IMG/VR virus record: IMGVR_UViG_3300005934_000012
Location: 1 to 36,901 of that record
DNA length: 36,901 nucleotides
DNA from: a virus
Taxonomy: Duplodnaviria > Caudoviricetes
Direction: 5' to 3' (one strand)
Below the pieces are notes generated by a model. The model was given only the letters and a program-made list of their open reading frames with translations, was not told the DNA's origin and ran no database searches. Below are positions 2,560 to 36,014 of the stretch, in pieces. How positions within the stretch are numbered: position 1 is the stretch's first letter; every line of letters starts with the position of its first letter. The position numbers were made by a program, and so were the translations under genes.

Positions 2560-2877
2560 TTATCTCCCTATGTGTTTTACATCTTTTTGTGGAATTACTT
2601 GGTATGCACCTTTATTGTATGCAGGTGCAACTGTAAAGTTTTTTGATGCTTCAGCTTTCCATGATTCATCCTTTTCTGGAGTATATGTGCTACTGATTGG
2701 CATCGATGGATATTTCTCTCTATGATCTTCCATCTGTTGTTGAGCAAATGTTTTTGGTTGTGCTGTCATAGGCACAAATTTAGGTTTGCTCTTCCTAACT
2801 GACATTGATGTGGTCTTACGTTTTCTGCCACATGGCGAATATCTTAAACTTCCTGAATAAAAACTTGTCATTCCCAT
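2560..2877 (-). CDS. conserved hypothetical protein
   Basis: C-terminal FTVAPAYNKGAYQVI motif recurrent in T4-like phages. Confidence 0.75.
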   Translation of the reverse strand: MGMTSFYSGSLRYSPCGRKRKTTSMSVRKSKPKFVPMTAQPKTFAQQQMEDHREKYPSMPISSTYTPEKDESWKAEASKNFTVAPAYNKGAYQVIPQKDVKHIGR

Positions 2878-3143
2878 TATGTATTCCTCACATAGTGTTC
2901 TAGTAATTCATTACCTTCTAGTATTCTTCCAAAAGTACGAAGCACTTTACCATTTTGTTTTCTTACAATATAACCACAATTATATTCGATATCGGTAACA
3001 CTTCCGTTCTCGGTATCTTCAGGGTGGTCATCATAATACATACTACTAAATGAATGTATATGTATTGACTTAGTTTTCATTGACCACTCTTCAGCTTCTA
3101 ATAATAATCTTTGCCTTTCTACTGTATCGTCGTACTGTGTCAT
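2877..3143 (-). CDS. hypothetical protein
   Basis: 88 aa ORF, coupled to neighbours. Confidence 0.75.
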   Translation of the reverse strand: MTQYDDTVERQRLLLEAEEWSMKTKSIHIHSFSSMYYDDHPEDTENGSVTDIEYNCGYIVRKQNGKVLRTFGRILEGNELLEHYVRNT

Positions 3144-3144
3144 A

Positions 3145-3429
3145 CTAATCCCAATTATCTTGATCCTTCATAGAATTATATGTTTCCATGTATGATGTAC
3201 CTGCAAGATAGTCTTGTGTTTGCTTTTCTGTATAGTACATATTTTCTTCTTTGAAACAATCTAAATTTCCTGGAGATTGATGTCCAGCTTTCTTAACTGA
3301 TGCAGTTAGTTTATTGTAATAATCTTTTGGTTTACTATAAACATTCTTGACTGCTTGCTTGAACTCTTGTTCAGCATCGTATTTTGCTTTTTCTTCTAAC
3401 AAAACTTTTTTGATATCTTCAAAATTCAT
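3145..3429 (-). CDS. hypothetical early protein
   Basis: 94 aa, SD AAGGAG, directly after early promoter. Confidence 0.8.
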   Translation of the reverse strand: MNFEDIKKVLLEEKAKYDAEQEFKQAVKNVYSKPKDYYNKLTASVKKAGHQSPGNLDCFKEENMYYTEKQTQDYLAGTSYMETYNSMKDQDNWD

Positions 3430-5386: not shown

Positions 5387-5421
5387 ATTATACCAAACTC
5401 TGGGAGCTTTGTACATGCTTT
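5387..5421 (-). promoter_or_regulatory. early promoter, AAAGCATGTACA class
   Basis: AAAGCATGTACA-17 nt-TATAAT, phased upstream A-tracts. Confidence 0.8.
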
Positions 5422-5467
5422 TTTTCACTTTTTTTAGATTTTTTTGTTATAAGTATATAACTTTTTG

Positions 5468-6055
5468 TTATAAGGAAGGGAGAGTTATTAGTCCAACAGA
5501 ATCCATAACCTCTATGTTATTAATAACGGCAATCGTAGTAAGAATGTTAGGAAATATTAGATCATCAGTATTATCACCCGCAAGATGCCATAATAAACCA
5601 CCAACAGTTAATTTAAGAGCAACTAATTCTCCAAGTGCAGGTCTTTCTCCTAATATAGGATTAGTTTCATATACTCTTGGATGTTTTAAGCCTCTATAAG
5701 TTGTATATACGTCAAGAGAATTAACTACGATAAAATATGTTTTAACTCTTTTTTCATCAAACTGTGAGAATCGTAACTCGCTCAGATTTGCCTTTGACTT
5801 GTATGTTATCGACTTGAGTATAGCTTCGTTCCGAACTTGCTCTAGCAGTGAATTGTGATAGCAGCACTCGTACCCCATCGTAATTGCGAGTTTGGCCTTC
5901 GAGTCTAGCTGCGAGATTAACGGCATCTCCAATGACGGAATAGTCAAATCGAGATTCTGATCCCATGTTTCCGACGATGCAATCCCCGGTATTAATACCA
6001 ATACCAACATCAATACGGGGTAAACCTTGTTCTTCCAATTCTGCAATAAGTTCAT
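5468..6055 (-). CDS. membrane protein whose 5' part overlaps the cyclase gene in +1 frame (start 6055 or 6010)
   Basis: Non-overlapped part has protein-like LDVYTTY.GL....ETNPILG motif and hydrophobic helices, but no usable in-frame ATG near its 5' end; N-terminus signal-peptide-like. Confidence 0.6.
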   Translation of the reverse strand: MNLLQNWKNKVYPVLMLVLVLIPGIASSETWDQNLDLTIPSLEMPLISQLDSKAKLAITMGYECCYHNSLLEQVRNEAILKSITYKSKANLSELRFSQFDEKRVKTYFIVVNSLDVYTTYRGLKHPRVYETNPILGERPALGELVALKLTVGGLLWHLAGDNTDDLIFPNILTTIAVINNIEVMDSVGLITLPSL

Positions 6056-7583
6056 CTGCTGCTTCTACTATTTCAATAGCAGTTTTAACTGCCATATCTG
6101 CGTGATTTTCGCATGGTAAAGGTGCGTTCCAGAATGCCATAATGCAGTCACCCATATACTTATCAATTGTTCCACCATTTGAAAGTATAATTTTTGTCAT
6201 ACGGTCTAAGTAATTATTTATAAGTTTTACTAAACCCTCTGGATCATTATTGTTTTTATAATGCTCTGATATTGGTGTAAATCCAACAATATCCATAAAC
6301 AAGAAAGACATTGTTTTTCTTTCTCCTCCAAGCTTTAAAAGAGAAGGATCTTTTTGTAATAACATAACTTGACGTGGATCGAGATATGTTTCAAATTGTT
6401 TCTTAATTTGTTGTCTTAGTACAAATTGCTTATAGAAGTTATTAAAGCTTGTTGAAGTGAATAAAAGTATATATAATATAAGTGGATAACTTAGGTCGGA
6501 GAGGATCCTTAATTCAGACCATAACCACCACGTACCAAACCCACTTCCTAATAAAATACTAAGGAATACTATAGATGATGTCAAGATTGATGTATAATAA
6601 GCAGTCAGAATTATTATTGAACCCAACAAAAACATTAAACCAAACTCCAGAGCCTCTGACCAAATCGGACGAGATATCGATATTTCATCCATTATTGACT
6701 GGATGGACGCAGCTTGAATATGATGAGATGATCGCAGACCAGCAGGTGTTGGTATTTGAGCAGACAATCCCTTCGCGGTTAACCCAATTAGAACTGTTTG
6801 ACCCTGAAGATCTGGAATAGGTTCTCCATATTCTAATTCAATAAATTTATAATTTGGATTAATCCACATAGAACCATTACTATCTGATTTAATTCTAAAT
6901 GGTCGTAATATAATTTCTTCGATTCCTGCATCTTGTATTTTAACTGTGTATGATGGTTTTTCGTTTAAAACTCGAATAGTTTCTAATGCAAACGAAGGAT
7001 ATAACTGATCATTTATTTGCGATATAAGTGGTATACGTCTTACTAATCCATCAACTTCAGGCATAGCATTTGTAAGTCCATGACCCCATGCTCCTTCTTC
7101 GATTTGTGGAATATTAGTGACTAATCCTTCGTATTTTATAACCCAATCTAATGGATCACCTGTACCAAATATAGCTGTACCGACATAAGGTGCTTGAGAA
7201 CTTCTACCTTGAGAATCTGCATCTTGTGCCAATATAATACCATTATCTTTTACCCATGATGCAAATACTTCGTCTCCTCCGAATCTATCGTTCTCTGGAA
7301 ACATAATCGTGAATCCAATATAACCTGCACCAGCGTTTCTTAGATCTGATATCATTTGTGCATATTGGTGTCTTGGGAATGGATATTGACCGTGCGCGAG
7401 GAGCGCTTTTTCTCCAATATTGAGTAGGATTATACTATTAGATTCACGAGAGGGCACTGTCTTAATATAGCTATCGAATGTATTTAATCTTAATTGTTCA
7501 ATAAGAGGTAAATCAATGATACGTAATGATAGTAACCCAACAAAAAGAATTATTGTTGTCCAGATGGACGTTATATACTTCAT
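5757..7583 (-). CDS. CHASE2-domain class III adenylate cyclase
   Basis: N-terminal TM, CHASE2 motifs (GQYPFPR, DGLVRRIPL, YPSFALE), three TMs, catalytic FMDIVGFT, IDKYMGDCIMAFW, GIGINTG, DYSVIGDAVNLAARLE, VKGK. Confidence 0.93.
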   Translation of the reverse strand: MKYITSIWTTIILFVGLLSLRIIDLPLIEQLRLNTFDSYIKTVPSRESNSIILLNIGEKALLAHGQYPFPRHQYAQMISDLRNAGAGYIGFTIMFPENDRFGGDEVFASWVKDNGIILAQDADSQGRSSQAPYVGTAIFGTGDPLDWVIKYEGLVTNIPQIEEGAWGHGLTNAMPEVDGLVRRIPLISQINDQLYPSFALETIRVLNEKPSYTVKIQDAGIEEIILRPFRIKSDSNGSMWINPNYKFIELEYGEPIPDLQGQTVLIGLTAKGLSAQIPTPAGLRSSHHIQAASIQSIMDEISISRPIWSEALEFGLMFLLGSIIILTAYYTSILTSSIVFLSILLGSGFGTWWLWSELRILSDLSYPLILYILLFTSTSFNNFYKQFVLRQQIKKQFETYLDPRQVMLLQKDPSLLKLGGERKTMSFLFMDIVGFTPISEHYKNNNDPEGLVKLINNYLDRMTKIILSNGGTIDKYMGDCIMAFWNAPLPCENHADMAVKTAIEIVEAADELIAELEEQGLPRIDVGIGINTGDCIVGNMGSESRFDYSVIGDAVNLAARLEGQTRNYDGVRVLLSQFTARASSERSYTQVDNIQVKGKSERVTILTV

Positions 7584-8401
7584 TAGTTTTGTGTTATTGA
7601 TACACTACAACCACCGACTGTTTGACAATCTTGTGAAAGTGTATATGATTGATCAGTTGATGTTTGTTGTAGTAAATATAAATTTGTAGGATATGAACCA
7701 CCAAGTGTAATAGTTGCTGAATGGCTACCTTGTCCTTCTTGTTTTATCCATGCTTCGTTGTAATCATTATTTGTTGTAAGTGAAAGATAATGGTCACCTT
7801 GCCTTTGATGTGTATAGATATCGTTGTAATCGCTATAAAGATTTATTTCTGCACGTATAGTATCACCTGAGTCATCATTTCTTTGTGTTCCGATAAGTGT
7901 ATTATTATTTCCATGTATATCTAATCTAACATACATTCCACCATACTCATCGTTATCAATAGTAAAATTACCTGTATCTGAAACAACAAATCCTTGTCCA
8001 AATTTTACAGTGTTGTTATTACCTGATATATGAAATCCAAAATAGTTATTTGTTGGACTATTTCCTGTTGTAGTGTTTTGTTTAATGGTAATAACATTAT
8101 CAGTTCCATCTAAATCACCACCCCAATTATAACCTGAACCCCATGTATCAGTCCATTTTACAGTATTGTTTGCACCTGTTTGCAGAATATCTATAACATT
8201 ATCTGCACCTCCAATTGAAAAATAAATCTCTTGATCATATCCTCTTTGTTCTAATGTAAGATCTAAATTATCTGATGCAGTTGGTGTTTGAATGTTAATT
8301 ATATTATCATCTGCATATATTGGAAGTACCATAAAATAACATGCACCCCATGGTAATATCCAATATTTAAAAATTGTTTCTCTAATTTTTTTCCAATTCA
8401 T
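7583..8401 (-). CDS. secreted curlin-repeat (CsgA/CsgB-like) protein
   Basis: Signal peptide; repeats such as DILQTGANNTV, HISGNNNTV, DIHGNNNTL, IKQEGQGSHSA; in csgG/csgF operon. Confidence 0.75.
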   Translation of the reverse strand: MNWKKIRETIFKYWILPWGACYFMVLPIYADDNIINIQTPTASDNLDLTLEQRGYDQEIYFSIGGADNVIDILQTGANNTVKWTDTWGSGYNWGGDLDGTDNVITIKQNTTTGNSPTNNYFGFHISGNNNTVKFGQGFVVSDTGNFTIDNDEYGGMYVRLDIHGNNNTLIGTQRNDDSGDTIRAEINLYSDYNDIYTHQRQGDHYLSLTTNNDYNEAWIKQEGQGSHSATITLGGSYPTNLYLLQQTSTDQSYTLSQDCQTVGGCSVSITQN

Positions 8402-8406
8402 ATATG

Positions 8407-8414
8407 TATTTATA
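8407..8414 (-). promoter_or_regulatory. T4-type late promoter
   Basis: TATAAATA in the 13-nt gap before ATG 8401. Confidence 0.7.
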
Positions 8415-9512
8415 CTAGTTTTGATTGATAATTACAATTATATCTTCAGCATCATTTCCAGTAATAATTCCTTGATAACCGGGAGTTGTTGTATCTAATG
8501 TGAAATTACCACCTGCAGCAAATTCAATTTCTATTACACCATTTACATTTCTATATAGAACAAGATTACCATCACGTAAAAATACATTAAATTGTGATTC
8601 ATCATTTAAGCCTCTTGTTGCACCTTTAATATCAAATTCGCCTAATGTATCAAATAAATCTGCCGAATCTACGACAGAAAGAAAATCTAATAAAAATTCG
8701 ACATCTAATTCATCAATATCTAATTCACTAAATTCTTCTAATTCATCTTCTGCAAGTTCATCTTCTTCTAATTCATTAAATTCTAAGAAATCTATATCCA
8801 ATAAACCTTGATCTTCGTCTTGTTCGTCCTGTAATTCTTCCTCTATTCTTTGTTTTACTTCAGGAGGTGGATTAACAATAAACATATTATCAATTAAAGC
8901 TGGTGTAATACCATTAATGACTGTCGATGTTGTTGGTGGTGTATCGGTTGTTGTAACCATTGTTGCAGCGTATGCTTGATCAAGTGTTACTGTACCACCA
9001 TTATTTGAAACTTCTATTACACCAGATGGATTGCCTTTATCATCAGGTAGAAGTATAACCAATGAACGTCCAAGTTCATCGATTGTTGTTGTAAAATCTG
9101 TACCACGAACTGCAATAGTAGCAGTTGGTGTTTGTATGTTTATATTTGCTTTATTAACTAATCCTAATTTACCTGATGCGAAACGTGCAGTTCCCATTGC
9201 CATTTTTAAAGACATTTTAGATAATGATGGATCTGGATCGTAATAAATCTCGTCTATTAAAACGAGAGAATGTTCTTTTAATTGTAATTCTGCTTCATCT
9301 AAAAATTCGATGAGCATACGACCTTTTGCTGTTTGTGCTTGATCGTATAATTCTATTTTGTCTGTTTGAATTGTTTCTTTATCGCGTAAAACTGATGTTA
9401 CGCCCGTAGATTCTCTTACATCGCCAATGGGATTAGCATAGCTAACCCCACTGATGAGTAAAAGACTAAGAGTCGCTGCCGCTGTCTTTTTGATTGATTG
9501 TAATAATTGCAT
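8415..9512 (-). CDS. periplasmic FecR-domain protein with acidic linker
   Basis: Signal peptide (..SYA/NP), FecR pattern with IQTPTATIAVRGTDF, long D/E-rich segment. Confidence 0.85.
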   Translation of the reverse strand: MQLLQSIKKTAAATLSLLLISGVSYANPIGDVRESTGVTSVLRDKETIQTDKIELYDQAQTAKGRMLIEFLDEAELQLKEHSLVLIDEIYYDPDPSLSKMSLKMAMGTARFASGKLGLVNKANINIQTPTATIAVRGTDFTTTIDELGRSLVILLPDDKGNPSGVIEVSNNGGTVTLDQAYAATMVTTTDTPPTTSTVINGITPALIDNMFIVNPPPEVKQRIEEELQDEQDEDQGLLDIDFLEFNELEEDELAEDELEEFSELDIDELDVEFLLDFLSVVDSADLFDTLGEFDIKGATRGLNDESQFNVFLRDGNLVLYRNVNGVIEIEFAAGGNFTLDTTTPGYQGIITGNDAEDIIVIINQN

Positions 9513-10212
9513 TATCCGATGTTACGTCTAATACGATATTAGCATTTGGTGATGTACAACCAACACCAGCACCTGTTGCACAAGTACCAGAAATTTGATT
9601 AATATCAATATCAGCACTATCACCTACTAAAGTAAGCTCTAAATTTTGAGCTCCGTCATTCTGTAATGTATTAATATTATTTGAATCACCTGTAATATCA
9701 AAATTCCAAACGTTATCATCAGATTCAAAATCTAAATCAAATATGTTTGAACTACCAATCAAGATTAAATCAGCATCTAATCTCTCTGCACTAACTGAAT
9801 AACCCTGATCTAAATCAAATGTGTTACTGTCTCCAGTTACATCAAAATTTATATTTGAGCTATCTGAACTGCCAATATAACCGATATTCCAATCGATTTC
9901 GTTTGAATCACCTGTAAAATCAAGCTTATAATAAGAACTATCAGATACAACTGGTCCAAATAAAATGTTTTGATTACCAGTAAAATCTAAATCGAAATCT
10001 AAACTCGAACCAGTAATACTCATTGAAGTACCTGAGCCGCTTGAAAAATCGTCTCCTCCAATTTTGTTACCGAAACCAATTTGATCGATATACAATTCTA
10101 GTGTATCACCAGATTGTGTGATTTTAATTTCGTTGTCATCAGTGGCTTGTGCGAAAAGTGAAGATGTCGACACTAAAACTCCTGCAAGGAGTATACTATA
10201 TAGTTTATTCAT
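9466..10212 (-). CDS. secreted curlin-like beta-solenoid protein
   Basis: Signal peptide; repeats IDQIGFGNKI, LDFTGNQNIL, LDFTGDSNEI, FDVTGDSNTF, LILIGSSNIF, FDITGDSNNI. Confidence 0.75.
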   Translation of the reverse strand: MNKLYSILLAGVLVSTSSLFAQATDDNEIKITQSGDTLELYIDQIGFGNKIGGDDFSSGSGTSMSITGSSLDFDLDFTGNQNILFGPVVSDSSYYKLDFTGDSNEIDWNIGYIGSSDSSNINFDVTGDSNTFDLDQGYSVSAERLDADLILIGSSNIFDLDFESDDNVWNFDITGDSNNINTLQNDGAQNLELTLVGDSADIDINQISGTCATGAGVGCTSPNANIVLDVTSDNAIITINQKDSGSDS

Positions 10213-11206
10213 TTTCGTTTATTTCCTCTGTTAACGGATGTTTCGCATTCGCACCGTTGTTTTGATGCGGATGGCGATGTCCATCCTCAATAATCCAATA
10301 ACCACGATCGTGGCCTTGGTACACTAATTCCAGTACTCCTGCTTCAATAGCGGTTCGTACTGCGTATGTCACAGACTCATTATTTCCCACACCGTCCTCA
10401 TATTCCAACAATGTGGTGCTTTGATCGACGAATCGAAAAATATCACCACTTCCACCATAACTAAGAATTGTCTTCTTAGCTTGAACGTTTAATAATACTT
10501 CTCCTGTTAAAACTGAAACAGCTCTAATGGAGACGGTTACAACATCTTGTTGATATCGTTTACTCTTACCAATACCCAGTAATCGTGCGCCTCGACCACC
10601 TGTTTGAATATTAGTATCGTATCCAATAATTCCACCTTCAATAATCATACCAGCGAATAAGAGTGGATTTAATGGTTGCGGACCACCGTCGCCCGCAAAC
10701 TCTTGTCTTGCACTTCTGATAATCTGACGTTCTCTTACTAGATTATCAATTCCTTGTCTTTCTACTACTCTAAACCATGTACCACCACCTGCAGTTTTTA
10801 ATGCATCGATCAACATTTCAGTTCCGCCTTGAGTAACTGCAGTTGAAAAATCAGCAATACCTGGTCTTGATTTTCTTTGTCCTGTTTTATCAATAAAGTT
10901 ATATACCGCAACAATTGGTCTTTCTTTTGCTGCAGGTAAATTTAATAATTCTACGTATGATGGTAGTCTTACAACTTCTGCTTCTTCTACACAAATATAA
11001 CTATGATTTATTGTTTTATCTAATAGTGCTTTTGTATTAGGAATAGTAGAACTATCAAAAACAACTTCGTGTTCTATTAAACCTTTTTCGTAATCAGATT
11101 CTTGAAAAGTAATTTCTTTGCACTCTTTTGGCTCTGCAGACCAAATAGGAGTCGATGATTCATTCATCAACCCTAAAATAAGTAATAATCCTAATACAGC
11201 TTCCAT
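10205..11206 (-). CDS. csgG: curli secretion channel CsgG
   Basis: VAVYNFIDKTGQRK, FSTAVTQGG, WFRVVERQGIDNLVRERQIIRS, EGGIIGYDTN, TGEVLLNV..KKTILS. Confidence 0.93.
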   Translation of the reverse strand: MEAVLGLLLILGLMNESSTPIWSAEPKECKEITFQESDYEKGLIEHEVVFDSSTIPNTKALLDKTINHSYICVEEAEVVRLPSYVELLNLPAAKERPIVAVYNFIDKTGQRKSRPGIADFSTAVTQGGTEMLIDALKTAGGGTWFRVVERQGIDNLVRERQIIRSARQEFAGDGGPQPLNPLLFAGMIIEGGIIGYDTNIQTGGRGARLLGIGKSKRYQQDVVTVSIRAVSVLTGEVLLNVQAKKTILSYGGSGDIFRFVDQSTTLLEYEDGVGNNESVTYAVRTAIEAGVLELVYQGHDRGYWIIEDGHRHPHQNNGANAKHPLTEEINENE

Positions 11207-11728
11207 TTAGCCACCATCCGGATCTTGGCCAAAGTTACCAGAACCGATTGGAATTTCTAAAACAGTTGTTGTTCCATCGTCCATAACTATAGTCATTTTA
11301 ATATATTCTGTGCCATCTTCGTTTGTAATAACTTCATAGGTAACTGTGTTACCTTCTAATACAAATGATCCAAATCTAACTGCATTATCATTACTAAACA
11401 TTGATTCAACTAGCTGTTTTGATAGTTGAGCATAAATTCTGCTCTCTAAGTTTCGAATGAACTTAGCCATTGTAGTATTTTCTGCTTCTCTTTCAGCTGC
11501 TTTACGTGCAGCTTCCATAGCATCTTTAATTGCTTTCTTTCTGCTATGTTCCTGATTCTCAATCGTTAAATAATGAGCACCAGTACCTATTCCACTAAAT
11601 GATGGATTTTTAAATTCATGTACAATATCTGCTGCAGCCACGTTTGGTGATACCGCTAAAATACTAACCATGAAAATAGTAATTAATGTAGCAATTTCGA
11701 AATTTTCTTTACACTTCTGTTTCTTCAT
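11207..11728 (-). CDS. csgF: curli assembly component CsgF
   Basis: Signal peptide then HEFKNPSFSG (cf. CsgF FxFxNPxFGG), F..NLESRIYAQLS; directly upstream of csgG. Confidence 0.85.
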   Translation of the reverse strand: MKKQKCKENFEIATLITIFMVSILAVSPNVAAADIVHEFKNPSFSGIGTGAHYLTIENQEHSRKKAIKDAMEAARKAAEREAENTTMAKFIRNLESRIYAQLSKQLVESMFSNDNAVRFGSFVLEGNTVTYEVITNEDGTEYIKMTIVMDDGTTTVLEIPIGSGNFGQDPDGG

Positions 11729-12543: not shown

Positions 12544-12724
12544 ATTTATTCTCCATTTCTTCTTTTGTTAAATTCCAATCTGAATGTCTAAAAAATCCTT
12601 GTTTTTCATGACACCAGAACCAACCTCTATCTTCGCCTTGATCTTCGTTAGTGTGATAATATCTTACACTGCCTCGAGTCTCGACATAAGTCTTTCTGCT
12701 CTGTTCGTTACTTGTCTGTACCAT
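12533..12724 (-). CDS. hypothetical protein overlapping lysozyme 3' end (start 12724 or 12760)
   Basis: Fills the gap between lysozyme and next gene with GWFWCHEKQGFFRHSDW; the plausible ATG starts lie inside lysozyme. Confidence 0.5.
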   Translation of the reverse strand: MVQTSNEQSRKTYVETRGSVRYYHTNEDQGEDRGWFWCHEKQGFFRHSDWNLTKEEMENKYGN

Positions 12725-13134
12725 CGTGAATCTCTGCCTTCTATAGCAGCCTCCTTCCAATCTCCTTCGAGAATTGCTGCATGCATTTTTTTAAATTTAC
12801 TTAATCTGGTCCTACCCATATTAAACATCATGTTGACCAATATCTGCTGGACTTCGTCGGGTAAAGCACTAAATCGCCCGTCTTCGTATAGCTTATTACA
12901 TTCTTCGATGGCGATATCGAGATCACGTTCGAAGCATTCTTTGACTCGCTCTTCGGAAACCACAGTGCCAACTTCAGATCCATATTCCGGATCAGAGTCG
13001 AGTACCAAGTGTCCCACCCCAAAAGTAGGATATCCCAGATGGTCTTTATATATTGCATAAACCACTCCTTCGTCCACTTTTAACTGTTCAAAAACAGCAT
13101 CTCTATCTAATGTTGTATCTTTTCTAAAAAACAT
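12664..13134 (-). CDS. e: T4-type lysozyme (GH24 endolysin)
   Basis: Catalytic E-x8-D-x5-T in DEGVVYAIYKDHLGYPTFGVGHL; LVNMMFNMG; SRWYRQVTNRAERL; SD AAGGA before 13134. Confidence 0.92.
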   Translation of the reverse strand: MFFRKDTTLDRDAVFEQLKVDEGVVYAIYKDHLGYPTFGVGHLVLDSDPEYGSEVGTVVSEERVKECFERDLDIAIEECNKLYEDGRFSALPDEVQQILVNMMFNMGRTRLSKFKKMHAAILEGDWKEAAIEGRDSRWYRQVTNRAERLMSRLEAV

Positions 13135-13186
13135 TATTTTATCCTTTTTAATTTTGTTCCAAAATACCTTATCAATATCTTCTGTA

Positions 13187-14038
13187 TTAAGAGATAAAGT
13201 ACCTCGTGTAAGTTTTGACATACTTAATTTCTCCAGTAGTCCCCTTTACAGTAAATCCATACTGCATAATATTATCTGTGATATCACCATTATGTATAAA
13301 GGATATACTATTGGCATCGCAAAATTCTTTTACTAGATTTTGAGGAGCCTGAAAGTATATATCATAATGTTCGTCTATGTTTTCATCTTTATCATGAATC
13401 ATTGCTACATATAAGTTAACATCACCATCATTATGATCAACTCTACGTTCAGTATCGAGATTCCATAACCAATCTGGTAAAAATGGAATAACCATATCAT
13501 CTCTTTTATTTGCTAAAAATCCTGGCCAATTATAAACTGCCTTACATAAAACAGCCTTTGTAACTTTATCAAATTTTAATCCCCACCATTCTCTAAAATG
13601 ATCTGAGTTACTTGATAATCCAAAATCTGATACAATACTTGAAGGCATGGCATCGAAACAATACCATGAAATACTATCATTAACATAAGGTTCTCTATCA
13701 GCACCATATTCTGATACTAAGTTTAATGGATTAGATTCATAATCAGAAACTTCATCAGCCCAATCTGCTTCGAGTTTGGCTTTAATTTCCTGACCTTGTG
13801 TTGATCCTATTGAGTAATCGCTTCTTCCTAAAACACCACCCATATATACATCATCTCTCATATTATTCGTATTTAATACAATATTTTGAGTTGCAAAATG
13901 ACTTTGTAAATATCTTTGAGCTCTTTGCATAAGCAATCGATCGGGATTACCTTTTCTAGGAATATAATGCGTAACTCCAGCGTAATCGGAATCTATTACG
14001 ATTGCTTGATTTTCTTCTAATGTATATGTAATTGCCAT
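13187..14038 (-). CDS. hypothetical protein, possible fibre/adhesin partner
   Basis: 283 aa, SD AGGA, directly downstream of fibre-like gene. Confidence 0.75.
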   Translation of the reverse strand: MAITYTLEENQAIVIDSDYAGVTHYIPRKGNPDRLLMQRAQRYLQSHFATQNIVLNTNNMRDDVYMGGVLGRSDYSIGSTQGQEIKAKLEADWADEVSDYESNPLNLVSEYGADREPYVNDSISWYCFDAMPSSIVSDFGLSSNSDHFREWWGLKFDKVTKAVLCKAVYNWPGFLANKRDDMVIPFLPDWLWNLDTERRVDHNDGDVNLYVAMIHDKDENIDEHYDIYFQAPQNLVKEFCDANSISFIHNGDITDNIMQYGFTVKGTTGEIKYVKTYTRYFIS

Positions 14039-23710: not shown

Positions 23711-24316
23711 TTAATAATTTCCTGAACTTAAAACAATCTTACAAATATGTTCCAACCTTTCAATATGTTCAAATGCTCTCCATGGCGTTTCATCAATAGC
23801 TACTACACCATGACCTTTAATACCAACAATATCAAAATAACACGATCCATCACTTTGTAATCCAAGATTATCAAAACAATGATCAGCTAATTCTTGAGAA
23901 ATTGGTGGAACATCAGGTACATTTGTTGCTACTTTAGAATAACGTCCTAGTTCTGGAAAATTAGTTACTAGTTCGTTTAGTTGAATTCCAGCGTGCATAG
24001 CTGAAACAATATATGTTGGATGAGTATGTAACACCACACGTGTTTCTGTTGGTATATTTTTTTGTAATCCCCAGTGCAGAGGTAATTCTCCTGTTGGTTT
24101 TAAACCTGATGCGATATCTGTGAAATACATATCATCACAATTATCGACTTTTAATTTTTTAAACATATCATATTGAATAACTGGCTTTCTAACACCAGAT
24201 GGAGTTACATAAAAATGATCTCTATCTGCATGTCTAAGAGATACATTACCATCTCTTGTACTAATCATTCCTTTATCATATGAATGTTTCATCACTTCAC
24301 ATATAGTTTCTAACAT
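23711..24316 (-). CDS. class II aldolase/adducin-family protein
   Basis: DGNVS, VTPSG, PTGELPLH, VLHTHP, KGHGVV metal-binding pattern. Confidence 0.88.
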   Translation of the reverse strand: MLETICEVMKHSYDKGMISTRDGNVSLRHADRDHFYVTPSGVRKPVIQYDMFKKLKVDNCDDMYFTDIASGLKPTGELPLHWGLQKNIPTETRVVLHTHPTYIVSAMHAGIQLNELVTNFPELGRYSKVATNVPDVPPISQELADHCFDNLGLQSDGSCYFDIVGIKGHGVVAIDETPWRAFEHIERLEHICKIVLSSGNY

Positions 24317-29106: not shown

Positions 29107-29868
29107 TTATTTTTCCTTTTTAGATAACCTCTGAATTGCTTTTACATAGTTTGGCATACCGTGATCTACTATACCATCAAAGAATTTAAATCTCTTCCAT
29201 GAGTTTAGTACTCCAAAAAATAAATCACCCCATGTTGGTTTAGGTTGTTTTTCACCATTTCTATCGAAATAAATCATTTCGCCATGATGTCTAAATCCTA
29301 ACCATGCAGGAGGAATTCTACATACGATATCATTATTGTTCATGAATCTATAATGTGGACATTTAACATGCTTAATAAATCTTGGTCCACCTACTCTTGG
29401 TGATCCAAAAGTAAATAATTCATGTGGTTGATATCTTGTTGCGGCAATTGTTGCCATTGCAGCACCTAGTGAATGTCCTGTCATGTAAACATCTTTACGA
29501 ACTTTTAATTGATCATTATGTTCAATTTCAGCTAATACATCCATCCAAAGATCATTTACTTCTTTTTGAAATCCACCATGTACTTTACCACCAGCTACAG
29601 CGGCTTGTTTAATTACATTTAAATCAGCTAAGACATCATTTAATTTTGAAGGTTCTGTACCTCTAAAGGCAAACCATAAATCATTTCTATCTTTTGCTAC
29701 TAATACTTCAGCACCATCGCGACTAATTAGTTTAGCCCATGGGAAACCGAGTTTCTTTGCTGCATTAATCGCAGGCTTTTCATTCATATAAGCAATTGCA
29801 GAAAGTTTTGCTGCAATCACTGCTCTGTCCCACTTCCCAATTTGCTCTTTCATTCTAGTTGTCGCCAT
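29107..29868 (-). CDS. class 3 lipase (alpha/beta hydrolase)
   Basis: AFRGTE, VHGGF, TGHSLGAAMA, TFGSPRVG, NDIVCRIP, DH; SD GGAG before 29868. Confidence 0.92.
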   Translation of the reverse strand: MATTRMKEQIGKWDRAVIAAKLSAIAYMNEKPAINAAKKLGFPWAKLISRDGAEVLVAKDRNDLWFAFRGTEPSKLNDVLADLNVIKQAAVAGGKVHGGFQKEVNDLWMDVLAEIEHNDQLKVRKDVYMTGHSLGAAMATIAATRYQPHELFTFGSPRVGGPRFIKHVKCPHYRFMNNNDIVCRIPPAWLGFRHHGEMIYFDRNGEKQPKPTWGDLFFGVLNSWKRFKFFDGIVDHGMPNYVKAIQRLSKKEK

Positions 29869-30355
29869 TATCATTCTCCACTTTAATTTCAACTGCTCCA
29901 GCTTCTTCATCATTTATTGTCACATTCCTATAATAGACTATCACCTCACCGAGTTGATTAATATAACGTTTAATTTCTTGAGTATTATAAGACATCATCT
30001 CATAATCCTCAACACTCATGGCGACAAAAACGACATCGCCTCCATGTTTCTTTTTAATATCATCGAGGAATTTATCTAAATATGTATATCCCTCTGGATA
30101 TAAATCTTCTCTACCTAACTTACAATTAGGCTTTTTTGTCTCTGGGTCTTTTAAACAAGACTCTATAATCTTTGCATCTGATACAACATACCATTTTGGT
30201 TCTTTTAAATCAATAGGTCTTGGTAATGTTGGTTGTGTAATTTGTAATTTAATTGGCTTTGTAATTACCTCAACTTCTCTTGGAGCTTGTTGTAATAATG
30301 AACAACCACTAATCGTTAAGACTAGAAATGCGATTGCTATCTGCTTCAATTGCAT
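29855..30355 (-). CDS. outer-membrane lipoprotein, o-spanin-like
   Basis: Lipobox ISGC, Pro-rich segment, C-terminal helix; SD AAGGAGG; start overlaps upstream i-spanin-like gene. Confidence 0.75.
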   Translation of the reverse strand: MQLKQIAIAFLVLTISGCSLLQQAPREVEVITKPIKLQITQPTLPRPIDLKEPKWYVVSDAKIIESCLKDPETKKPNCKLGREDLYPEGYTYLDKFLDDIKKKHGGDVVFVAMSVEDYEMMSYNTQEIKRYINQLGEVIVYYRNVTINDEEAGAVEIKVENDNGDN

Positions 30356-34858: not shown

Positions 34859-35343
34859 TACACTTTTACCCTTTTAAAGAATTGAAGTTGTTTATCTAAT
34901 TCTTTTGCTGCCTTATCTAACTGATCTTTAGCAGCTTTAATTTTTGCTTTATTTAAAGCTCTTTCATCTGCAGCTATTTGGTTCAATCTATCTCTTTCAT
35001 CTTTAATTCTTTGCTTAGCATCTAATATATCATCTTTAGCCATTCTTAATCGAGTTAATTTATCTGCCTTTTTCATTACTTTTGCTCTTTTACGATCAGC
35101 AATAGCTTGTTTTGCATATCTAACTGATAAAGCTTTTCCACCTTTTACAATACCTTTAACTGCCAATTTCCCCATAAAAATACCAGCTTTAGTTGCTAAT
35201 TCAACTGCTTTATATGCTTTATCAACTACCATTAATAATGCATCTTCATCCAATTGCGATAAATGCATATTAGCTTTATTTTCATCCATTTCTAGAATTT
35301 CTTCTAGTGTTTTTGGCTCTGTATATTCGTTAAAACTTTTCAT
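34858..35343 (-). CDS. putative internal virion protein, coiled coil
   Basis: Start 35343 (ATGA overlap) gives MKSFNEYTE leader. Confidence 0.7.
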   Translation of the reverse strand: MKSFNEYTEPKTLEEILEMDENKANMHLSQLDEDALLMVVDKAYKAVELATKAGIFMGKLAVKGIVKGGKALSVRYAKQAIADRKRAKVMKKADKLTRLRMAKDDILDAKQRIKDERDRLNQIAADERALNKAKIKAAKDQLDKAAKELDKQLQFFKRVKV

Positions 35344-36014
35344 TTTTGGCTTTTTATCCATTTTTGTGCTTTCGCATTTTCAGGTGGCTTTTTGGCCCAC
35401 GCTGCAATCTTTTTATAAGCATCCATTGTTGCTCTATCAATATCTGAAGCTTCAGAATTATCAACAACAATCATTCTATTTCGAAACAAACCTTGAAATT
35501 TTCCGATATTCTTTTGAACATCTTTCCACATCTTTTCTACCTGATCATCGGGCAATTGACGTGGCCTAGATTTATTTCTTTTTAATGCTGTTTCTAAATC
35601 TGTATTTACAAAAATCATATAAACAGCATAACCTATATCTCTTAATCCATCAACTTGTTTTTTGATTTTACTGTAATCTTTACCAGTACCATCAATAACA
35701 AGTCCTAATCTTCCCTTTAAAGCAATTTCCATTTGCTTATTAGTTATATTTTTTGCTTTGGCCCTTACTTCTTGACCTTGTACAGAAAATATATCTTCTG
35801 GATCCATTGTTAATCCAGCTTTTTTCAAACCTTTTTCAAATTGATCATCAGAATTAATTAATCTAAATCCTAATGACTTTAAAGAAGTTTTACCCACCAC
35901 AAATGATTTACCACTTCCTGGACCACCTGCTAAAAAAACTGCTTTAAATATTGAAGGATCATTTATTCCTTCCATCATATTTAAATAATCAGTAAAATTA
36001 TTTTCCAAATTCAT
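35340..36014 (-). CDS. P-loop kinase (zeta-toxin/AAA_33-like)
   Basis: FLAGGPGSGKS, INSD, LVIDGTG, ALKRNKSR.R lid, VVDNS. Confidence 0.82.
   Translation of the reverse strand: MNLENNFTDYLNMMEGINDPSIFKAVFLAGGPGSGKSFVVGKTSLKSLGFRLINSDDQFEKGLKKAGLTMDPEDIFSVQGQEVRAKAKNITNKQMEIALKGRLGLVIDGTGKDYSKIKKQVDGLRDIGYAVYMIFVNTDLETALKRNKSRPRQLPDDQVEKMWKDVQKNIGKFQGLFRNRMIVVDNSEASDIDRATMDAYKKIAAWAKKPPENAKAQKWIKSQK

Follow-up and report, generated by a model that had tools for sequence, protein, structure and literature searches.

In a 36,901-nucleotide stretch of phage DNA (IMG/VR record IMGVR_UViG_3300005934_000012, hereafter the window), the gene for a CHASE2-adenylate/guanylate cyclase shares its last 299 nt with a second open reading frame (ORF), P0001, which is read on the same strand in the +1 frame. 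By comparison with homologous loci, this overlapping frame is conserved and not an artefact, and it very probably represents a dual-coding gene that is genuine and translated. The window comes from a T4-like phage, of which it covers 36.9 kb with genes for gp59, RNase H, ribonucleotide reductase and PhoH, and the sequencing runs containing it carry mostly marine or estuarine labels and some freshwater ones.

The P0001 frame extends from stop to stop over 6064-5468, with an ATG at 6055, and 289 nt of the ORF lie beyond the cyclase stop. This agrees with the first-pass annotation of the window, which had described a stop-free +1 frame from 6055 past the cyclase stop to 5468. The annotation had also called the overlapped part GC-richer than the rest of the gene, and cyclase codons 510-608 indeed have 43.8% GC against 34.6% for codons 1-509. 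Equally correct were its statements that the only in-frame ATG of the free 289 nt lies 13 codons from the end (residue 184, the sole Met of this part, counting the stop codon) and that the ATG at 5757 yields only MKKELKHILS*, a short ORF that is probably a product of chance. The overlap had been placed on a constrained active site, which holds for the latter half of the catalytic domain only: D553, N556, R560 and K597 are inside, and the first-half residues D431, K475 and D479 are outside. These residues are invariant in 39 sequences, and we take them to be the two metal-binding Asp, the substrate Lys and Asp, the catalytic Asn and Arg, and the C-terminal Lys of class III cyclases. Judged by this residue set, the protein belongs to class III and is predicted to have cyclase activity. 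The term overprinted gene is too broad, since it suits the N-terminal 99 residues but not the C-terminal domain, which is a member of a wider family.

Conservation of the second frame

Viral loci were chosen by cyclase similarity alone, as the best 80 of 598; one ends before the cyclase stop, leaving 79 usable loci. The +1 frame is open for at least 290 nt before the cyclase stop in 78 of them (69-90% cyclase identity), the exception being L088. The downstream domain is present in 77 of these 78 loci, and the contig of the remaining one ends 27 nt past the stop. Removal of duplicates and L088, and addition of the window and two ORF-selected loci, gave a set of 73 distinct loci. The first-pass annotation had proposed looking in homologues for depletion of +1 stops and suppressed synonymous variation, and had named +1 stops together with a separate start past the cyclase stop as the pattern of a mutated start or sequencing error. 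Not a single +1 stop was found in the overlap across the 73 loci, compared with about 555 expected. A +1 ATG occurs within 30 nt of the cyclase stop in only 3/73 loci, and an ATG at the cyclase stop in any frame in 7/73, so neither part of the error pattern was seen. The loci newly found by alignment of the ORF all overlap a cyclase in the same phase (79/79), and this phase is shared by 120 distinct overlap ORFs. As a control, 97 distinct phage cyclases without the overlap were inspected over the same 95 codons and have 3-20 +1 stops, with a mean of 9.8; three control cyclases without the anchor motif were dropped.

A frame open by chance, with a mutated start or a sequencing error in the window, could be suspected because T-ending codons often give hydrophobic +1 frames and because two of 79 cellular cyclases, both with 67-68% GC, are stop-free in +1 here. 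However, when the synonymous codons of the window cyclase were permuted, the last 99 codons were free of +1 stops in only 1 of 20,000 trials (mean 7.8 stops). Independent runs contain no indel in 5468-6222 among the matches listed, and one contig is identical over 5931-6216. Together with the constant phase and the missing separate start, the frame conservation in 78/79 loci, the stop count of 0 against about 555 and the stop-rich controls rule out this explanation, to which we assign practically no probability. No copy of the gene was found near any of 80 cellular cyclase loci (GTDB, best 80 of 480).

The suppression of synonymous variation was likewise found. Measured against codon use across the whole gene, synonymous diversity amounts to 0.87 in CHASE2 and 0.93 in the catalytic part before the overlap (residues 420-500), and falls to 0.56-0.61 in the overlap, also when columns of like amino-acid conservation are compared. 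Here, almost all loci keep codons that such AT-rich genes otherwise seldom use (GAC in 69, TCC in 67, GGA in 72 and GGG in 72 of the 73 loci). The identity of the +1 translations in the overlap is 0.66 compared with 0.43 after stop-avoiding recoding, indicating that stop avoidance does not explain the constraint; outside the overlap, real and recoded values show little or no excess (0.49 vs 0.46 and 0.48 vs 0.48). Furthermore, several +1 residues are fixed in 73/73 loci while the cyclase residue at the same place varies: Cys at cyclase residue 573 (V, L or M), Val at residue 583 (C, S or G) and Leu at residue 559 (A or S).

An RNA structure or DNA element could also suppress synonymous variation and leave the +1 ORF a passive bystander, and a DNA-level signal, the T4 late-promoter box TATAAATA, does sit within the cyclase gene. 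Nevertheless, no RNA folding signal was detected in the overlap (mean z +0.34, 0/30 loci below -2, a weak consensus fold; z -1.3 in the window), and the constraint tracks the +1 amino acids and the motifs of free-standing homologous proteins, which makes this explanation extremely improbable. A profile made from the N-termini of such free proteins (101 sequences, with the domain excluded and the 4 nearest rows left out) scored at least 10 bits for 55/73 real +1 peptides and for 0/730 recoded ones. No other observation indicates as strongly as this match that the overlapped segment is a working protein sequence. The features of dual coding open to sequence comparison, namely stop depletion, suppressed synonymous variation without RNA structure, amino-acid selection in +1 and a conserved start, were all observed.

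Start codon, promoters and the encoded protein

In 71/73 loci, the RFDY codon is preceded by an open-frame ATG at a distance of 95, 104 or 113 nt, compared with 952/5096 background windows of a comparable kind that contain one, and NAY+G sites in the start zone have T in 77/77 cases vs 1275/1679 elsewhere. The codons just upstream of the start zone are crowded with +1 stops, and in many loci one stands immediately before the ATG. The position of these stops bears on a programmed +1 frameshift, by which the CHASE2-transmembrane part and half of the cyclase would be fused to a +1 product with no start of its own. Such a mechanism would account for an open frame with a weak ribosome-binding signal. 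However, a stop abutting the ATG leaves no room to shift, the ATG is conserved and followed by a signal-like segment, and the free homologues start alike. We therefore consider a frameshift fusion very unlikely and an internal start at the ATG the better reading.

The TATAAATA box that had been reported upstream of the second gene is present on the minus strand (Table 1). An internal box of this kind occurs in 27/73 loci, compared with 4.3 expected, and in 1/66 control cyclases. The carriers are 27 of the 31 loci of the fully supported subclade that includes the window, with 0/42 outside, and the box at 6222 is likely an internal late promoter of this subclade, predicted to have been gained once. 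The window has 9 such boxes, all on the coding strand, and from the one at 8414 a late mRNA could be transcribed across both the cyclase gene and the gene overlapping it. A scan for sigma-70 promoters gave sites no more numerous than in shuffled sequences. In the A-rich intergenic stretch right past the overlapped gene, a sigma-70-like site (TGTACA-17-TATAAT with TG) is found on the minus strand at 5387-5466. Reads and contigs of other genomes match 5387-5466 and then diverge, suggesting a repeated early-promoter element.

The hydrophobic peak of P0001 covers residues 11-29, and the free homologues have a signal-like start ahead of the same motifs. The xDLTIP motif is found in 63/73 real loci vs 7/730 synonymous redraws, and L-D-L-T-x-P is invariant in 31 short homologues. 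In the Cys-Cys motif, L, I, G, C, C and V are fixed in 73/73 loci; L, I, G, Y and V are at least 90% conserved in 105 free-type proteins. AlphaFold modelled residues 101-186 with confidence as a three-helix bundle but the N-terminus only with low confidence, and a free protein of the Cys-Cys type is predicted to fold like P0001. The family shares the D-x3-T and E-x-N-P motifs with Pfam DUF5658 (PF18902), which 67 of its 81 members match at E 0.01 or better (best 1.7e-6), and one neighbouring Atlas cluster is 11% DUF5658. The window protein itself reaches 17.7 bits over profile positions 2-45 of 82, below the gathering cut-off of 25.2, and differs from PF18902 by a 100-residue N-terminal extension. 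Because several homologues have a precomputed DUF5658 label while the window protein lies under the cut-off, we call the domain DUF5658-like. P0001 has no PHROG family. Several database entries begin at a Met near residue 80, as gene callers often shorten this gene. One database protein, P0135, switches from the +1 frame to the cyclase frame and back, and may be a frameshifted copy or an assembly error.

Several observations weigh against a translated and exported product with a role beside the cyclase. The 73 loci are related, so their counts are not independent events, although synonymous sites outside the overlap are near saturation. L059 and L061 are without the usual ATG, and a Shine-Dalgarno-like word precedes only 38/73 candidate ATGs. 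RNA runs gave only short contigs over this stretch and are uninformative on expression. A signal-like stretch is present, as the first-pass annotation had read it, but its hydrophobicity is only modestly above that of recoded cyclase DNA (2.69 vs 2.26, sd 0.8), making it largely a +1 by-product of the cyclase strand. The fold comparisons gave no match pointing to a function: Foldseek found nothing in PDB at E 0.001 or better, the best VIA-align hits (Z 8.0 and 6.4) are generic helical bundles, and BFVD contains one uncharacterised viral relative. Finally, the cyclase occurs in HTVC008M, in Melnitz and in 80 loci of the HTVC008M type, none of which has a copy of the gene nearby; this indicates that the gene is dispensable for the cyclase.

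Table 1. Features of the overlap and of the surrounding gene cassette, in window coordinates
Feature	Position	Strand	Remarks
CsgF	11207..11728	-	PF10614
CsgG	10205..11206	-	PF03783
Curlin-repeat protein	9466..10212	-	PF07012
FecR-domain protein	8415..9512	-	PF04773
TATAAATA box	8407..8414	-	directly before the 8401 gene
272-aa protein	7583..8401	-	in the slot of the published cassette's second curlin-repeat gene
CHASE2-adenylate/guanylate cyclase, 608 aa (P0002)	5757..7583	-	Pfam PF05226 and PF00211; class III catalytic residues intact
T4 late-promoter box TATAAATA inside the cyclase gene	6215..6222	-	160 nt before the ATG
195-aa ORF (P0001)	5468..6055	-	predicted signal peptide, LDLTIP motif, Cys-Cys motif, DUF5658-like domain
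Likely start ATG	6053..6055	-	formed by cyclase codons GAT-GAA (D510-E511)
Dual-coding region, 299 nt	5757..6055	-	frame 0, cyclase codons 510-608; +1, P0001 residues 1-99
Predicted Sec signal peptide, residues 1-28	5972..6055	-	cleavage likely at A-S-S/E-T; read from the sequence
LDLTIP motif	5936..5953	-	+1 reading of cyclase S-R-F-D-Y-S
L-x7-I-x2-G-x-[ET]-C-C-Y-x7-V motif	5834..5908	-	+1 reading of cyclase A559-S583
DUF5658-like domain, non-overlapped	5498..5755	-	predicted three-helix bundle; D115, E130, N132, P139, K148 and N180 invariant
10-codon ORF MKKELKHILS*	5725..5757	-	ATG shares the cyclase TGA; not conserved
Example P0001 (+1 frame) peptide			ETWDQNLDLTIPSLEMPLISQLDSK

Free relatives, gene cassette and origin of the overlap

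The minus-strand genes csgF, csgG, a curlin-repeat gene, a FecR gene, the gene of the 272-aa protein and the cyclase gene follow one another in the window. From this gene order in a phage genome with T4-type gp59 and RNase H, the cluster is the published phage curli cassette. The 272-aa protein has no significant Pfam or PHROG match. A phage lysozyme is encoded just upstream of the cassette (12664-13221), as in L093 and L097. In L097, L099, L102, L103 and L190-L197, the cyclase is inverted relative to csgF-csgG-curlin-FecR-DUF, and L102 and L103 have an additional gene between the inverted cyclase and the remaining cassette. Elsewhere the window encodes a class 3 lipase (29107-29913), a class II aldolase (23711-24316) and a zeta-toxin-like kinase (35340-36014); no tRNA and no Rfam match was found in it.

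Homologues of P0001 comprise 70 proteins that align with 58-98% of the query and a further 30 or so short ones of the free type, with 122-132 aa. A profile search gave 522 cluster representatives for the family, and the Cys-Cys type alone has 183 proteins. Wherever DNA could be consulted, the short forms are encoded by free genes within the curli cassette; for proteins without DNA, the status 'free' was taken from the sequence. Among 42 new loci, the gene is located upstream of the cyclase in 23, on the opposite strand in 6 and in overlap form in 6; 5 have no cyclase (all short or cut contigs), and in 2 the gene follows the cyclase and shortly overlaps the end of its long tail. In L222 (3610-4294) and L223 (3697-4294), the gene start lies within the last ~50 bases of a long-tailed cyclase, forming a second, short overlap. 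The cyclase is downstream in 15 of 20 loci of the Cys-Cys/GxxxPY type, the other 5 being short or cut. The partner co-inherited with the cyclase that the first-pass annotation envisaged is thus supported at the level of gene neighbourhood, where free copies adjoin the cyclase. No relative was found in cultured phage records.

The free N-termini are signal-like and contain most often LDL[TS][IL]P or L-x7-I-x2-G-x-x-C-C-Y, with a GWHAPY variant. Both motifs are present in the overlap form, at a spacing fixed by the cyclase, whereas most free forms have only one. Considering that the C-terminal domain and both motifs also occur in free genes, P0001 is not wholly overprinted de novo. More distant relatives in L003-L012 (around 2830-3300) consist of a signal and the domain only, and several lie between long T/N-rich genes. 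They end in G-x-hydrophobic-x-F/W, a pattern that resembles an outer-membrane beta-signal. L307 and L314 are short contigs in bacterial metagenome-assembled genomes whose cyclases fall inside phage clades, and are probably phage contamination.

Over the cyclase catalytic region, the overlap carriers share at least 63% identity with the window. In a cyclase tree of 42 representatives of 359 rows, long-tailed cyclases included, the overlap lineage is nested (86/80), with the HTVC008M type as its sister group, and the cyclases of free genes branch deeper. For the cyclase, the overlap thus has a single origin, and the deeper position of the free-gene cyclases favours a free ancestor. A domain tree of 138 rows, in which 47 of the 78 overlap representatives were included, shows the overlap forms interleaved with the free ones, with 22 changes of which at least 9 are forced. 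A single overlap clade was also rejected in a 56-row domain tree, for which some rows were chosen after the first tree had been seen. The domain trees, built on only ~100 columns, fit both domain swapping and repeated release from the overlap.

Release would mean that the +1 frame of the cyclase gave rise to the N-terminal motifs and that the motif-bearing free genes descend from released copies, for which we see a somewhat less than even chance. The combination of both motifs at cyclase-fixed spacing in the overlap form is in agreement with it, as is the origin of LDLTIP, which reads off the ancient RFDYS motif common to bacterial cyclases. The E/T before Cys-Cys mirrors an R/D polymorphism of the cyclase, and E or T is found in 75/96 free proteins; overlap domains are, moreover, spread across the family tree. 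A further case is P0123, which has both motifs at the same 32-residue spacing although 16 of these 32 residues are incompatible with the cyclase, including at D553 and R560. Its domain is sister to that of the overlap locus L076 (100/97), and this protein sequence points to at least one release. However, the cyclase tree runs the other way, no DNA context was found for P0123 (nor for P0121), the free N-termini are very diverse, and a test for residual memory of the cyclase was weak with conserved positions removed (213/5000 shuffles).

The free motif-bearing gene may instead be ancestral: one copy would have moved behind the cyclase, its codons would have been gradually tuned to the same +1 motifs, and C-terminal domains would later have been swapped between phages. 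This agrees with the cyclase tree, and the interleaved domain trees are equally compatible with module swapping. Some free forms have both the LD[LI]G segment and the G-x3-PY variant. In addition, L032 contains a free copy directly upstream of the cyclase and an overlapped copy in one genome (1305-1728 and 3187-3907), which resembles the duplication stage proposed for spanins in the text consulted (PMC6139136). On the other hand, two motifs from different free subfamilies would have to be matched by an invariant catalytic core, with a chance fit that we roughly estimate at well under 1 in 100, and P0123 would be unexplained. We regard this re-encoding as only slightly less likely than release. 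About the same chance is given to the fuller form of the release reading, in which cyclase active-site DNA gave birth in +1 to a signal peptide and two motifs, was joined to a DUF5658-like domain and was repeatedly released, so that a large marine phage envelope family would have N-termini of frameshifted cyclase. If true, nature would offer a case in which overprinting and a subsequent escape from the overlap can be traced.

Possible role and comparison with known systems

We propose that ribosomes would start inside the cyclase mRNA at the internal ATG 6055, on a late transcript from box 8414 or, in the subclade of the window, from box 6222. The product would be exported by the Sec pathway with removal of residues 1-28. 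The LDLTIP and Cys-Cys segments, the latter with vicinal cysteines, would face the periplasm ahead of a membrane-associated three-helix DUF5658-like domain, and the cyclase would remain active. P0001 would then be a small membrane-associated accessory of the phage curli-FecR-cyclase cassette; its translation, export and function are here predicted from the sequence.

The position of the gene beside the cyclase in four arrangements favours an accessory on the cyclase input side, and a non-essential modulator of the input of the CHASE2 cyclase is our preferred, though doubtful, role. Involvement with the curli pore has a similar likelihood. More broadly, a real protein that acts together with the pore or fibre of the curli system (CsgF, CsgG, curlin, FecR), or alone in the membrane, for example in superinfection exclusion or lysis timing, comes close to an even chance, and the cyclase would then be adjacent only as the end of the cassette. 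Such a function would be consistent with the signal-like start, the location in a curli cassette, and a C-terminal domain that is hypervariable between loci while the cyclase is conserved. The gene is also missing from whole cyclase clades, and distant relatives have no cyclase within 3 kb in 10/12 loci. However, the gene adjoins the cyclase whether upstream, downstream, overlapped or on the opposite strand. An o-spanin (Rz1-like) was rejected as a candidate: there is no Cys at the predicted cleavage site, the upstream gene encodes a cyclase, and no PHROG match was found.

Long same-strand overlaps are usually considered cheap because they are located on a disposable tail. The overlap in the window lies on invariant catalytic residues of a large double-stranded DNA phage and is held in >100 genomes. 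Selection in one lineage of marine T4-like phages thus maintains a single piece of DNA for two proteins. The occurrence of overlapped, free, duplicated and absent states in nature provides a ready test bed for the origin and resolution of overlaps and for the seeding of free genes. P0001 and its relatives also add a recurrent gene to the published phage curli-cyclase cassette. In a literature search of mostly freely accessible papers, we found no description of the cyclase overlap, nothing direct on release from an overlap, and no paper naming DUF5658. Phage curli cassettes and overlapped genes are already known, and it is dual coding over a cyclase catalytic core that we did not find described.

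A cassette of curli (type VIII secretion system), FecR and adenylate cyclase genes has been reported in the pelagiphages HTVC008M and Melnitz (Wittmers et al. 2022, PMC9599517; Buchholz et al. 2022, PMC9004378). As far as these texts were available, the order csgF-csgG-curlin-FecR-second repeat gene-cyclase is like that of the window, whose cyclase is 44% identical to that of HTVC008M and 36% to that of Melnitz. Wittmers et al. also describe a 'histidine kinase' gene upstream. Both phages differ from the window in lacking the gene, and the published text mentions neither a DUF5658-like gene nor an overlap, although figures or supplements may show the gene. The two-component spanins Rz/Rz1 are similar in that a phage envelope protein has its signal sequence in the +1 frame of the upstream gene, and in that their families contain both separated and overlapped members, with embedded spanins also known (Kongari et al. 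2018, PMC6139136, consulted in part). According to the same text, overlaps in the mixed families are 70-155 bp long and lie on the diverging C-terminus of the upstream gene, whereas the 299 nt in the window cover catalytic residues that are invariant, and motifs belonging to the mature form of the free proteins are retained in the overlapped part. Unlike an o-spanin, the window protein has no spanin homology and no lipobox Cys after the hydrophobic stretch. Genes remodelled out of frame, of the ALT-ORF type, are known in E. coli (Watson, Lopez, Bapteste 2021, PMC8788219), as is overprinting in viruses in general (PMC8227390). Compared with the cases in the portions of these papers that we consulted, the window differs in that both frames are under selection in >100 genomes and free relatives share the motifs of the alternative frame.

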